Source: a virus
Virus genome (UHGV): UHGV-1624389
Strand: one strand, 5' to 3'
Length of the DNA: 26,134 nucleotides
Below, in pieces: positions 16,619-26,134 of the stretch. A program made the translations under genes and the position numbers. A model generated the notes under the pieces. It was not told the DNA's origin and ran no database searches. It saw only the letters and a program-made list of their open reading frames with translations. How positions within the stretch are numbered: the stretch's first letter is position 1; every line of letters starts with the position of its first letter.

Positions 16619-16647
16619 TTGCGTACGCGTTAGCGCTTTTGTATATT
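16619..16647 (+). promoter_or_regulatory. Candidate sigma-70 promoter for the plus-strand two-gene insert
   Basis: TTGCGT (16619-16624), 17-bp spacer, TATATT (16642-16647), about 35 bp upstream of the ATG at 16681. Confidence 0.35.
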
Positions 16648-16680
16648 CAGCTTAATCCTATGTATTTATGGAAAAATAAG

Positions 16681-17712
16681 ATGAGCAAGCGTGAAATCAA
16701 AACTAAAAAAATAATCTATAAAGAAGTCACAATGTCAGGTGTGTCAAAGACGCTCCAGTCGATGCTAATGGAGCTGCTCAAAAAACACACTAAAGCAGAT
16801 TCTCGCAAGGAAATGGTCAACCCAGGAGAGGAAGACTTATTCCGATTAATTAATAAACATGAAGAGTTCCAGGGAATGCTGTTTTGCCAGCTTGTTGCCT
16901 TCGAACCAGGCCATTCTCAACGCTATATACAGCTTAAAAATGATGCTGAATCTTATGAAATAAGATCCGTAACATCAGATGAACTTTCTAAAATGACTGT
17001 TGAAGAAGCTGAAGAAGCACGCACAGAGAGGGAACAGGTTGTGCGTGAGTTTATAGATTCAATTCTTTATTTCGGTGTATTTGGTAACAGCATCGTAGTA
17101 ATGCAATCCAGATCTCTTACAACAAGAGAACTTGAAACACATCTGAAATGGTTACTTGGCTCTTTAAGCAATTACTTAGGCGCAGAAAACATCTTAAAAG
17201 TTTCCGATAAGCCCAAAGAAGAGATCATTGAGGAAGTTCTAAAACGACCTGTAAAATCAGTTTCTATAGGTGCCCCTGTAACTGCCGTTAACGAATTTAG
17301 TCAAGGAAGCAAAAGCCCAGGCTGGGTTCCCGCAGGAACTGCCTCTGAACTCCTTAAAGCTATGTTAGCAGAGAAATGGGAAAGCTTCTTACGTAGTAGC
17401 AAGCTTGAAGATTGTCTTGATGACGCTAATCTTGAAGTAACGCTGAAAATCACATACAAGAGGAAAACTTCTGATTCAGGAGAAAGGATGTTAAGAAATC
17501 TTGTTGACGCTACCAGACACTACCCGGATGATGACGTCGTTGTTGAAATGGTTGGTGGGACGCGTTTAACTGGTAAAGAGATTCGTTTATGGAATACTGT
17601 TAAACTCACAACTTACAATAGCTTAATTGATGAACATGAACTATATGGCCAAATGCATGATTGGATGGTCGCTCTGATCAACAATGGAGAAATAGAAGAG
17701 ACCGATGAATAG
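16681..17712 (+). CDS. Insert gene A: soluble protein of unknown function, candidate sensor component
   Basis: Long ORF on the strand opposite to all flanking phage genes. The start is taken at MSKREIKTKK (16681) because the track's first Met at 16639 lies inside the putative promoter. About 343 aa, hydrophilic, no Walker A or nucleotidyltransferase GS...DxD motif seen. Visibly AT-rich. Confidence 0.7.
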   Translation: MSKREIKTKKIIYKEVTMSGVSKTLQSMLMELLKKHTKADSRKEMVNPGEEDLFRLINKHEEFQGMLFCQLVAFEPGHSQRYIQLKNDAESYEIRSVTSDELSKMTVEEAEEARTEREQVVREFIDSILYFGVFGNSIVVMQSRSLTTRELETHLKWLLGSLSNYLGAENILKVSDKPKEEIIEEVLKRPVKSVSIGAPVTAVNEFSQGSKSPGWVPAGTASELLKAMLAEKWESFLRSSKLEDCLDDANLEVTLKITYKRKTSDSGERMLRNLVDATRHYPDDDVVVEMVGGTRLTGKEIRLWNTVKLTTYNSLIDEHELYGQMHDWMVALINNGEIEETDE

Positions 17713-18244
17713 AGAGGCTGCTAAGTGCATATCCTACCAACAACCAAGTAGAGCATTCCACTTGGTTGTTGTAGTATTGCTTATGTTTACAGCCTGGTTT
17801 ATCGCCAATAAGTACATCATTTTAACATCCATTCCTTGGGGCGTATTAACTATCCTCATCTTACCAATTGCAAGTAGCGCAACCCTGTTTCATAAGTTAT
17901 CTGAAACCCAAAAAAACGTTGCTGAGGATTTATCTCGCAATGAACAAAGAAGGTTAACAAGGCTTATTAAAGAAAAAAGCCGGGCAACATTATTCATGCT
18001 TACGCTACAAATTTCGATAATAATTTTTGTGGCATTGATTAGCCTTGGCAATGAGTCCTCTTTTGTTCAACAGCACATTCATACTATAAGTAAATTCGTT
18101 GTTTGTGCTTTGGTTTTTTCACTATACTCATTAATCCCTGTTTTACTAGGAGTAAAGGAAGTTATTGATTTTGAAGGGTTAATAAAAACACGAAAAACAT
18201 TAAATAAGCGTAAAAAATCTGCATTATCCAAGCTTGGGAAGTAA
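17705..18244 (+). CDS. Insert gene B: four-TM small membrane protein, candidate effector
   Basis: 179 aa with four hydrophobic helices (HLVVVVLLMFTAWFIA, IPWGVLTILILPIASSATLF, LFMLTLQISIIIFVALISLG, FVVCALVFSLYSLIPVLLGV), a charged loop and a basic C-tail. Start overlaps gene A's stop (ATGAATAG), so the two are translationally coupled. Confidence 0.7.
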   Translation: MNREAAKCISYQQPSRAFHLVVVVLLMFTAWFIANKYIILTSIPWGVLTILILPIASSATLFHKLSETQKNVAEDLSRNEQRRLTRLIKEKSRATLFMLTLQISIIIFVALISLGNESSFVQQHIHTISKFVVCALVFSLYSLIPVLLGVKEVIDFEGLIKTRKTLNKRKKSALSKLGK

Positions 18245-22291: not shown

Positions 22292-23233
22292 TCACCCCCT
22301 GAATCCTGCCGGGATCTGGCTGTAGTCCACGTTGTCGTAACTGGATTTGAAGTACGGGTCTTCGCGTTTTTCGGTGTACGTGCTGACGGACGGTGATAAG
22401 CGCAGGGAAAGCTCATCCCATTTTTCCCGCAACTTCGACGGGCTGAGCACGTTACGGCACCAGAACGGATCGCGGCTGACGCGGCTGTACATCTCGCAGA
22501 TTTGTTTGTGAGTACGACCATCCTGCACACACATCAGGCGAATTTCGTTTGCCCAGGCTGTCCAGTTCGGTTCTTTGGGACGAACCACCTCGCCGTCACA
22601 TTCGGCGGCTTGCTCGTACAGGGCGATGATTTTTTTCCAGAGCCACTGTGCGCAGGTCAAATCATCCTGCGTTCCCCACTGGCGCTTTTTAGGGCTGAAT
22701 ACAACCGCATCAGGATGGCGAGTTAAAAAATCCTGTTCATCCGTCTGCGTGTCCGGTTGCGAAGCGTCCGGACGAGAAGGTTTTTTATCTGACGGATCAT
22801 GTTTTGATTTTACTGACGGATCCCCGCCAGATTCTGACGGGTGAAAACCCGCTTTTTTGCCAGATTTCGACGCATCAAATTTTGACGGGTCAGATTTTGA
22901 TGCGTCAGATTTTGACGGGTCAGAATCTGACAGTTGAGAAAATGCCGCTGCCTGAAGCTTCGCAACGTTAAGCTGATAAACATTCGACGCATTGCGGTTA
23001 CCCTGGCGACGCGCCTTACGCGTTAACCAGCCTTCTGCTTCCAGCCGTGCGATAGCCGTCCTGACGGTACTCATCCCCGCGCCAATCTGACGGGCAATAG
23101 TTTCAATTGATGGCCAGCACACACCTTCGTCATTACTGAAATCAGCCAGGCGGGCCATAATTGCCACGCTGGATAATTTCATGCCTGATGCAGCGCAACC
23201 ATCCCATACATAGCCGGTTAATTTAGTGCTCAT
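22292..23233 (-). CDS. Replication initiation protein (lambda O-like, N-terminal HTH, iterons embedded)
   Basis: 313 aa with an N-terminal HTH-like region (SIETIARQIGAGMSTVRTAIARLEAEGWL), a central DPSKSDASKSDPSKFDASKSG repeat encoded by 15-bp DNA repeats, and a conserved-looking C-terminal domain. Confidence 0.7.
   Translation of the reverse strand: MSTKLTGYVWDGCAASGMKLSSVAIMARLADFSNDEGVCWPSIETIARQIGAGMSTVRTAIARLEAEGWLTRKARRQGNRNASNVYQLNVAKLQAAAFSQLSDSDPSKSDASKSDPSKFDASKSGKKAGFHPSESGGDPSVKSKHDPSDKKPSRPDASQPDTQTDEQDFLTRHPDAVVFSPKKRQWGTQDDLTCAQWLWKKIIALYEQAAECDGEVVRPKEPNWTAWANEIRLMCVQDGRTHKQICEMYSRVSRDPFWCRNVLSPSKLREKWDELSLRLSPSVSTYTEKREDPYFKSSYDNVDYSQIPAGFRG
22805..22935. repeat. Iteron-like direct repeats (candidate origin of replication) inside the O-like gene
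   Basis: Seven or more copies of a motif with core TGACGG (22814, 22835, 22883, 22913; variants at 22868, 22898, 22928). Five copies are spaced at exactly 15 bp across 22861-22935. Confidence 0.6.
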
Positions 23234-23242
23234 GACCGACCT

Positions 23243-23581
23243 CTATTTCCCTGAATTTACGACGAAACTGTTCGAGCGGACTGAAGCATTCATGCTCATA
23301 ACCTTCGCGGAGGTAGATAACCCGTTGTGTTTCCGGCTCCCAACGAATGACTCTGACGAGCACTCCGTAGTGATCTTTGAACCAGCGGTTAACTTGTCGC
23401 AAAGGACTGTCTCCTTCTGCCGGTTGAAATCACCCACAGCCCACTCTGCAAAGCTGTGGGTTACAATTTCCCTGTCACCTGGTACATTCACTGCATAGCA
23501 ATATTCCACCTTCGCTTTTCCACCCGGTACAGGAAGCGCAATCAGTTGCGAGCGACGGTAGTGTGTTGTTAAACTGTTCAT
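23243..23581 (-). CDS. Hypothetical protein with ambiguous reading frame in its 3' half
   Basis: ATG at 23581 has a good SD (GGAGA, 9 nt upstream). The N-terminal half looks protein-like, the C-terminal half is Ser-rich and low-complexity, and an alternative frame (TTG at 23402 to 23223) reads more like a real protein. See findings. Confidence 0.3.
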
Positions 23582-24147
23582 GCGTTAGTTTCTCCACAAC
23601 CAGAAGCAATCGACGCCACGACGCCCGGAGCTGCACACTCGCGGGCGTCATTACTTTCTGAAATGCAAAAAATTTTGTAGACAAGTGCTGCATGCTCCTG
23701 CAGCTTCGAAATTGAGAGATACAGCTCGTCGTTAATTGCTGTCTTCTCATGCGGTTCCACTACGCCGTCTTCGATTGCTGAACGAATCTGTTTTGAATAA
23801 CTGCCGATCTGTTCAATGACTTCCAGCAGACGCTGGTTAATATCGGCGTTGTCCACATCCTCGACGTCAGGAAGAGACACAAAGACGCCATTTGCAGACT
23901 GCGCCACAGCATCAGCAATGAAGTGAGTGCCACCAGCACGCTGTAAAACCATTGCCCATCCCAGCGGGAAAATCTGATCGCCATCTGCACGAAGGCGGTT
24001 GAATAAAGCGTTCTCTGTTACATCCAGCCAGTCAGCGGCTTCAGCGTAACCCCCCGGCAACGCCGCGATAGTTTTTCTGACAGCTTTCACGTACCACTCA
24101 GGCTGTTTTTCTATTTTCCAGTGATGCTTACCCACGGTTAGCCTCAT
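23578..24147 (-). CDS. CII-position regulatory protein (YdaT-like, putative)
   Basis: 189-aa ORF immediately downstream of the cro-like gene, in the position held by cII / YdaT in lambdoid prophages. No motif positively recognised. Confidence 0.45.
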
Positions 24148-24469: not shown

Positions 24470-25144
24470 ATGAAAACAATCCATGACATCCGGCGGTCTA
24501 ACGCCAGAAAACTGAGAGATGGTGTTGGCGGGAATTCTTCCTTTGCCACTATGATTGATCGCGAGCCAACCCAGACCAGCAGGTTTATGGGAGATGGTGC
24601 TACTAAAAATATCGGTGACAGCATGGCACGACACATCGAAAAATGTTTCGACCTGCCTGTCGGATGGCTCGATCAAGAACACCAGACAACGAACATCACA
24701 AAAAAACCTGATGTTTCAATCACTAATAAACAAATCACATTAGTCCCTGTCATATCATGGGTACAGGCCGGAGCATGGAAAGAAGTTGGATATTCTGAGG
24801 TTGATTTGAGCACAGCAGAAACGTATCCCTGCCCTGTACCCTGTGGGGAAATGACTTATATCTTGCGGGTGATAGGTGATTCAATGATTGATGAGTACCG
24901 CCCGGGAGACATGATTTTTGTCGATCCTGAAGTACCTGCCTGCCACGGTGACGACGTTATTGCATTGATGCACGATACAGGCGAAACCACCTTCAAAAGG
25001 TTGATAGAAGATGGGACACAGCGTTATCTCAAAGCGTTAAACCCAAACTGGCCTGAGCCTTACATTAAGATCAACGGTAATTGCTCTATAATTGGTACAG
25101 TGATTTTCTCAGGAAAACCAAGAAGATACAAAATCAAAGCCTAA
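24470..25144 (+). CDS. cI: CI-like repressor (HTH plus S24 LexA-like autopeptidase domain)
   Basis: 224 aa with a C-terminal ...VIGDSMIDEYRPGDMIFVDP...TFKRL... segment (Ser in GDSM, Lys in FKRL) typical of the S24 fold. Divergent from cro. Confidence 0.85.
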   Translation: MKTIHDIRRSNARKLRDGVGGNSSFATMIDREPTQTSRFMGDGATKNIGDSMARHIEKCFDLPVGWLDQEHQTTNITKKPDVSITNKQITLVPVISWVQAGAWKEVGYSEVDLSTAETYPCPVPCGEMTYILRVIGDSMIDEYRPGDMIFVDPEVPACHGDDVIALMHDTGETTFKRLIEDGTQRYLKALNPNWPEPYIKINGNCSIIGTVIFSGKPRRYKIKA

Positions 25145-25434: not shown

Positions 25435-26134
25435 TGAGTGGATGACAAAGAAGCTTGAATCGCCACGGATAATCTAGACACTTCCGAGCCGTTGATAATA
25501 CTGGTTTTCATATTCTGTCGGTGACATCTGATCGCTGGAACCATGCCGACGCTTACTGTTATAAAACATTTCGATGTAATCAAAAATATCGCTGCGGGCT
25601 TCTTCCCGCGTTCCGTAGATCTTTTTCTTTATCCGTTCGCGTTTCAACAACTGGAAAAAGCTTTCTGCAACCGCATTATCATGGCAGTTACCGCGACGGC
25701 TCATGCTGCCCTCCAGGCCGTGTGATTTCAGGAACGACTGCCACTCATGGCTTGTGTACTGACTGCCCTGATCCGAATGAACCAGCACCTGTTTTTGGGG
25801 ATTACGGCGCCATACAGCCATCAGCAGTGCGTTCAGGACAATGTCCTTTGTCATCCGGGATTGCATGGACCAGCCGATAATTTTGCGTGAGAACAGATCA
25901 ACAACCACGGCAAGATACAGCCAGCCTTCGTGGGTCCTGATGTAGGTTATGTCCGTTACCCAACGCTTATCCGGAGCATCCGGATTGAACTGTCGCTGGA
26001 GCCTGTTGGGCGACACGATACTGGCCTCGCCTTTACGTGCCCGCGGGCTCCGGTATCCGACCTGAGCCTTTATCCCGACACGTTTCATCAGTCGCCAGAC
26101 TCTGTTCACTCCGCACTGTTGCCCGCTGTCCCGC
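25435..26134 (-). mobile_element. IS3-family insertion sequence, partial; extends beyond the right edge
   Basis: Contains an IS3-family orfB-type transposase. The left boundary is uncertain: the TGAGTGG... stretch at about 25435 is a guess at the terminal inverted repeat, made from memory of IS3-family ends. Confidence 0.6.
25474..26109 (-). CDS. IS3-family transposase OrfB (DDE integrase core)
   Basis: 211 aa: ...WVTDITYIRTHEGWLYLAVVVDLFSRKIIGWSM...HSDQGSQYTS...GNCHDNAVAESFF..., an RNase-H-like DDE pattern close to IS3 InsF as remembered. The orfA/frameshift region lies outside the window. Confidence 0.85.
   Translation of the reverse strand: MNRVWRLMKRVGIKAQVGYRSPRARKGEASIVSPNRLQRQFNPDAPDKRWVTDITYIRTHEGWLYLAVVVDLFSRKIIGWSMQSRMTKDIVLNALLMAVWRRNPQKQVLVHSDQGSQYTSHEWQSFLKSHGLEGSMSRRGNCHDNAVAESFFQLLKRERIKKKIYGTREEARSDIFDYIEMFYNSKRRHGSSDQMSPTEYENQYYQRLGSV

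Follow-up and report, generated by a model that had tools for sequence, protein, structure and literature searches.

Overlapping genes are a familiar feature of phage genomes. In the Rz/Rz1 pair of phage lambda, a small gene has its own start inside another gene and in a different frame, and lambdoid phages keep both frames open; the two products have defined functions in which they co-operate, and amino-acid-level constraint acts on both frames. Prophages also encode small proteins that block Z-ring formation upon prophage derepression, such as Kil (in lambda and Rac) and DicB.

The identity of SfiC, the SOS division inhibitor of the e14 prophage, has been a question for approximately 35 years, which is currently answered with ymfM. 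In the work of Ansari et al., the ymfM open reading frame (ORF) was cloned in pBAD24 and lambda-Red deletions were made; filamentation was reported upon expression of the Escherichia coli K-12 ORF, and Z rings were lost upon its induction, with no need for SulA, SlmA, or MinC (bioRxiv 10.1101/2020.11.19.390815). Earlier expression-library screens yielded a clone with ymfL(142-185), ymfM, and ymfN(1-92) in one case and a region from ymfN to ymfK in the other.

Here, we have analyzed a 26,134-nucleotide stretch of DNA from the virus genome UHGV-1624389 (the whole stretch is called the window below), in which two protein-like reading frames share one gene slot. With a probability of roughly 80%, we consider this slot to comprise two genuine out-of-frame overlapping genes of an e14-type early-right operon, ymfM and a gene for a DUF4222 protein. 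Both genes were already known separately; what is modestly new is the conservation of their overlap, the avoidance of stops in one frame without constraint on its sequence, and the consequence for SfiC.

Layout of the slot and its two reading frames

An e14-type lambdoid prophage is represented on the minus strand of the window by its early-right operon, which consists of a cro-like gene, a cII-type regulator gene, the ymfM/DUF4222 slot, and an O-like replication gene, followed by PerC, Dam, and later genes; a cI-like repressor gene lies on the plus strand (24470-25144). The slot thus has the position expected of YmfM in an early-right operon, with the cII-like ymfL on one side and the replication gene on the other. 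The features of the slot are listed in Table 1.

Table 1. Coordinates of the ymfM/DUF4222 slot and its neighbors in the window, with the basis of each assignment
Feature	Position	Strand	Basis
cII-type regulator gene, ymfL-like (189 aa)	23578..24147	-	Pfam Phage_CP76 (E=1.3e-13); ymfL in K-12 and RefSeq annotation
ymfM ribosome-binding site, GGAG	23592..23595	-	10 nt 5' of the ATG; read from the sequence
ymfM ORF, 112 aa, e14 'cell division inhibitor YmfM' (SfiC)	23243..23581	-	Identity to K-12 b1148; phrog_1170
ymfM-only stretch, conserved N-terminal domain of about 60 residues	23403..23581	-	Homologue alignment; pN vs pS
DUF4222 ribosome-binding site, AAGGAG, within ymfM	23411..23416	-	8 nt 5' of the TTG
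DUF4222 gene, 59 aa, TTG start, -1 frame relative to ymfM	23223..23402	-	Pfam PF13973; selection; PGAP
160-nt dual-coding stretch (DUF4222 codons 1-53, YmfM residues 61-112)	23243..23402	-	Stop avoidance; codon choice
ymfM TAG and 9-nt spacer (AGGTCGGTC) up to the O-like ATG	23234..23245	-	GAGG across stop and spacer
O-like replication initiator gene, 313 aa	22292..23233	-	Pfam HTH_36 (E=4.3e-11); 'DNA replication protein O' in phage records

The ymfM ORF extends from ATG 23581 to TAG 23245-23243, and its ATG overlaps the TGA stop of the cII-like ymfL gene (ATGA). The DUF4222 ORF extends from TTG 23402 to TAA 23225-23223; the O-like ATG (23233) lies 11 nt inside its end, and it runs 20 nt past the ymfM stop and is thus not fully embedded. 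A sequence-only reading of this DNA had described a 112-aa ORF with a good ribosome-binding site, and the GGAG at 23595-23592 confirms this. It had also described a 59-aa frame that is preceded by AGGAG and overlaps the O-like start; this motif is part of AAGGAG (23416-23411), the overlap amounts to 11 nt, and the translation is exactly as given. No RNA family was detected in the window by an Rfam search.

Two other regions of the window deserve mention. Just beyond the cI-like repressor gene, an ORF at 25474-26109 (minus strand) has the integrase core of the rve family (Pfam rve, E=1e-33); it resembles an insertion sequence that marks the left border of the immunity region. At 16639-18244 (plus strand), beside the antiterminator-Q region, two ORFs, one of 357 aa that begins with TTG and one of 179 aa, are opposed to the surrounding phage genes. 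Neither matched anything in Pfam or PADLOC, and the full cassette is confined to 14 of the 5426 complete E. coli genomes, as 'hypothetical protein'; it is possibly a moron or defence cargo.

The window ymfM shares 99% nucleotide identity with b1148 of the K-12 e14 prophage (two amino-acid differences, S75P and V102A), and residues 1-112 of its product match phrog_1170 (E=8.5e-69). DNA matches were found in 2685 of the 5426 complete E. coli genomes and also in phages such as SfII and SfIV. The N-terminal part of approximately 60 residues is well conserved, with 22 invariant columns among 23 homologues, and the corresponding stretch of the gene has a pN of 0.14 versus a pS of 0.44. Stand-alone genes for this domain exist in phrog_20047 and in Entomohabitans, and shorter YmfM forms (61-68 aa) also occur as clusters. 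In Entomohabitans teleogrylli (locus L204), a 78-aa gene that codes for the N-terminal domain only overlaps the O-like start directly, with no DUF4222 gene present; the domain, carried alone here, is therefore an autonomous module. Sequence conservation, the excess of pS over pN, and the stand-alone versions all argue that the N-terminal domain is part of a real gene product.

The last 45 residues of YmfM include 12 Ser and 3 Thr, in agreement with the Ser-rich, low-complexity end noticed in the sequence-only reading, and the tail (residues 60-112) is disordered in the AlphaFold model (pLDDT 31-42); the model as a whole is poor (pLDDT 48) and was left out of the fold search. Among homologues, the Ser/Thr-rich tail varies freely, yet it stays open: homologues down to 44% identity (44-63%) keep an ORF of 112-117 aa. 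Their comparison revealed no conserved tail sequence beyond what DUF4222 imposes. Hence, with regard to the question raised earlier of whether homologues support the 112-aa frame across its whole length, they do so for its openness but not for the sequence of its tail.

The second frame matches Pfam PF13973 with 66.3 bits (cut-off 27; E=1.7e-18), residues 2-53 being aligned with profile positions 3-52 of 53, and corresponds to phrog_1343 in PHROGs, as the YmfM frame does to phrog_1170; both are families without known function. Relatives are mostly 59-70 residues long and have a common N-terminus, MR(Q/E)(V/L)NR, which places the DUF4222 start at TTG 23402; the start codon is TTG in the window and ATG in most relatives. 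A Shine-Dalgarno-like core of at least 4 nt is found within 22 nt upstream of the start in 32 of 37 lineage representatives. The AlphaFold model (pLDDT 83.6) shows a small barrel of five strands and one short helix, for which Foldseek against PDB returned generic small-barrel likeness only (KOW/Tudor/SH3, best E=0.03) and no functional lead. Sequence searches of PDB and NCBIfam yielded nothing for YmfM or DUF4222, including any solved relative. Considering the predicted foldable domain and the purifying selection described below, it is very likely that DUF4222 is a real gene. In the window protein, residue 15 is Leu (CTC, position 23359) where K-12 and the family consensus have Pro, and the same base change gives Ser instead of Pro at residue 75 of YmfM.

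Conservation of the overlap and selection in its two frames

Related loci were collected from species-representative genomes (35 DUF4222 loci), from divergent YmfM homologues (two), and from viral contigs (160). For the viral contigs, a first DUF4222 alignment gave only near-identical E. coli copies, and a divergent alignment was then used for diversity. The 199 loci represent 110 distinct DUF4222 sequences, which form 37 clusters below 90% nucleotide identity and range across the Enterobacterales, from Escherichia to Pantoea and Providencia. Both frames are open in 196 of the 199 loci, DUF4222 being broken in two and the ymfM tail truncated in one; the alignment with related loci, proposed in the sequence-only reading as a way to find an indel, thus recovered the same two-frame structure in K-12 and in these 196 loci. 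In every one of the genome loci, DUF4222 is entered by an upstream ORF, which is in the +1 frame relative to it and ends at nt 160-169 of the DUF4222 gene, and the third frame closes within 8-113 nt. The ORFs that read in are of at least three or four divergent N-terminal types, and the nesting is also seen for DUF4222 genes that are at most 47% identical to the window protein.

The three exceptions are natural single-frame knock-outs and possible test material. In L161, YmfM is cut short at ...LCDK (residue 63) by a stop that occupies nt 11-13 of the overlap, counted from zero at the DUF4222 start, and DUF4222 is intact; in L022 and L132 a stop lies inside DUF4222 and the ymfM frame is intact. 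Together with the clusters of shorter YmfM forms, the truncation in L161 suggests that the tail is dispensable, at least in the short term.

A different arrangement was observed in Providencia sp. PAZ2 (L036 and L037), where a YmfM-like gene (68 or 96 aa) has its stop immediately past the DUF4222 ATG (ATGACTGA) and DUF4222 ends at the replication gene. The +1 frame over DUF4222 is still stop-free in these two loci (P of about 0.05-0.07 each) and has its own ATG 7 nt past the DUF4222 ATG. As the frame is open here without read-in, openness is not strictly tied to read-in.

Within the overlap, the amino-acid constraint is set by DUF4222. Across pairs (NG86), this frame has a pN of 0.14 and a pS of 0.72, and its pN/pS is about 0.2-0.3 (0.29 over codons 2-33); over the same codons, the ymfM and third frames have ratios of 1.26 and 1.52, respectively. 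Within the overlap, purifying selection on amino acids was thus seen for DUF4222 (0.29) but not for ymfM (1.26). Substitutions are concentrated at DUF4222 third positions (0.52 vs 0.24 and 0.20), and the earlier impression that the 59-aa frame reads more naturally agrees with this selection on the DUF4222 frame. A lowered synonymous divergence of DUF4222, looked for as a sign of constraint on the tail, was not found either (pS 0.70-0.72 vs 0.68 in the O gene).

Such values raise the question of whether DUF4222 is the only functional gene in the overlap, the ymfM tail being a meaningless run-on whose openness derives from codon bias or shared ancestry. The ymfM-frame ratio of 1.26 resembles that of the non-coding third frame (1.52), the tail is predicted to be disordered, the Providencia frame is open without read-in, and L161 is a naturally truncated variant, all of which fit this explanation. 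However, synonymous sites between lineages are saturated (pS about 0.7), and yet the ymfM frame contains no stop within the overlap in any of the 37 clusters, against about two expected in each when synonymous codons are resampled for each DUF4222 protein with local codon usage; the third frame, in contrast, carries 1-9 stops, about the number expected. Under this resampling, the probability of an open ymfM frame is 0.03-0.24 per sequence, and the joint probability for 13 lineages with all pairwise pS values of at least 0.5 is about 10^-14, a figure that is indicative only because the sequences are related. Codon choice is also context-dependent within the same genes. Where a Val, Leu, or Ile codon is followed by A or G, so that TAA, TAG, or TGA is possible in the ymfM frame, only 1 of 180 such codons ends in A or G, compared with 48 of 154 in safe contexts (Fisher p=2e-17, again indicative only given the phylogenetic relatedness of the sequences). 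T and C alternate at these constrained third positions, which implies that the sites do turn over. In addition, the position of the ymfM stop is fixed beside the replication-gene start, as detailed below. A run-on thus appears unlikely, although it is the most serious of the alternatives, and we conclude that the ymfM frame is kept stop-free by selection on DUF4222 synonymous sites.

Two further features bear on the tail itself. Its hydrophobic content is below the mean of the no-stop simulation in all 13 lineages, and the third positions of DUF4222 are C-rich (0.37 vs 0.27) and T-poor compared with flanking genes. Both suggest that the tail is indeed produced and is prevented from doing harm. 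Since changes in the ymfM frame are free and no conserved tail sequence exists, any claim of a specific function for the tail is weakened.

Expression of the slot and alternatives to two genes

The end of the ymfM frame adjoins the start of the replication gene in all 34 lineage representatives in which that gene could be located. The gap is mostly 9 nt, in the order TAG or TAA, then AGGNCGNNC, then ATG, and is 0-6 nt elsewhere; the stop lies past the replication-gene ATG by 11 nt in L038, L124, and L149 and by 38 nt in L195. This adjacency holds across several unrelated replication-gene types and also in the absence of DUF4222 (Entomohabitans), and the position of the DUF4222 stop is variable, between 8 and about 90 nt inside the replication gene.

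If the slot contains two genuine overlapping genes, translation of ymfM would begin by stop-start overlap with ymfL and first produce the conserved domain of approximately 60 residues. Ribosomes would then presumably translate the tail as well, reading on out of register through DUF4222 to add a disordered, Ser/Thr-rich stretch of approximately 50 residues that ends 9 nt before the replication-gene ATG. DUF4222 would have a separate start within ymfM, with a ribosome-binding site and a TTG of its own, to give a 59-residue beta-barrel protein, and both proteins would probably be made together upon SOS-driven loss of the cI-like repressor. From geometry alone, we infer a chain of translational coupling from ymfL through ymfM to the replication gene. 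The tail may be open mainly so that ribosomes from ymfL and ymfM reach the replication-gene start (coupling and avoidance of polarity) rather than for its sequence: since the ymfM ORF must bridge the DUF4222 module, stops would be selected against without selection on the tail sequence. The Providencia frame that is open without read-in is a caveat to the coupling, which the DUF4222 stop alone could also supply.

The geometry of the two frames also invites the idea of programmed -1 ribosomal frameshifting that fuses the YmfM N-terminal domain to DUF4222, given that the DUF4222 frame is -1 relative to ymfM and that databases contain fusions of the YmfM N-terminus with DUF4222 (P0031, P0053, P0060, and P0065). 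These fusions, however, have few members and differ from one another in their junctions (indels or deletions), which gives them the appearance of indel variants or errors. Moreover, an in-frame stop precedes the DUF4222 start by 0-39 codons, a distance that shrinks to 0-2 codons in several lineages (L033, L018, L023, and L024), no slippery heptamer of the form X XXY YYZ occurs in 23403-23440, and DUF4222 possesses a separate ribosome-binding site as well as a start that lines up with the N-terminus of the family. Frameshifting was therefore rejected as highly improbable.

Annotation practice has split the two genes between databases. The NCBI pipeline (PGAP/RefSeq) annotates DUF4222 and leaves about 175 nt after ymfL blank (loci L001 and L202), so the YmfM N-terminal domain goes unannotated in thousands of PGAP genomes, while the curated K-12 annotation includes ymfM and no DUF4222 gene. 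The latter would be expected if only ymfM was real and DUF4222 was a spurious family derived from its shadow frame, but this option was also rejected, and with even less hesitation: the DUF4222 frame shows third-position substitutions and a pN/pS of 0.29, its fold is predicted with confidence, and the YmfM-like gene of Providencia ends just past the DUF4222 start, without reading through DUF4222. Finally, a frameshifted pseudogene or a sequencing or assembly error in this genome, which were offered along with overlapping genes in the sequence-only reading and might account for two plausible frames in one slot, one with a low-complexity end, can be dismissed for practical purposes, as K-12 (99% identity) and thousands of genomes sequenced independently have the identical arrangement, distant genera share it, and both frames are intact in 196 of 199 loci.

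The SfiC assignment and comparison with known systems

Two genuine genes in the slot have a direct consequence for SfiC. The K-12 ymfM ORF (L002, 2823-3161) contains the DUF4222 ribosome-binding site, its TTG (3002), and codons 1-53 of 59, which comprise the entire Pfam domain. Among published ymfM experiments, which used whole-ORF clones and whole-gene deletions, none was found that separates YmfM from the DUF4222 product. Since such constructs and deletions carry or remove both products, they do not distinguish YmfM from DUF4222 as the division blocker. It is possible, though on balance rather doubtful, that the SfiC division block is wholly or partly due to the DUF4222 beta-barrel protein or needs both products. 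In any case, the assignment of SfiC to the 112-aa YmfM rests on DNA that encodes two products, and frame-specific mutants are needed in searches for its target and mechanism.

The closest described locus is that of K-12 e14, in which ymfM is the same gene and lies between the same neighbors, downstream of ymfL and upstream of an O-like gene. The latter is truncated and fused in K-12 (ymfN), whereas it is intact in the window (313 aa). In addition, published K-12 work treats ymfM as a single gene, whereas a nested DUF4222 gene is found here. As to the DUF4222 family (phrog_1343), the window protein is a full-length match with conserved start and length. The family is listed without function in Pfam, its nesting inside a ymfM-like ORF was not found in any paper, and none of the five open-access papers found to mention DUF4222 links it to ymfM.

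As a small prophage-encoded protein with a reported Z-ring block, YmfM is comparable to Kil and DicB; no relation to them by sequence or fold was found in Foldseek, PDB, and NCBIfam searches. With respect to gene arrangement, the lambda Rz/Rz1 pair is the nearest parallel, but two differences are evident: DUF4222 is not fully embedded in ymfM, and the frame of the ymfM tail shows only stop avoidance and composition bias, whereas both frames of Rz/Rz1 are constrained. The locus thus provides a clean natural example in which selection on one frame acts only to keep it open and hydrophilic, and the ymfM/DUF4222 case may be useful for understanding the origins of overlapping genes and translational coupling in mosaic phage operons.
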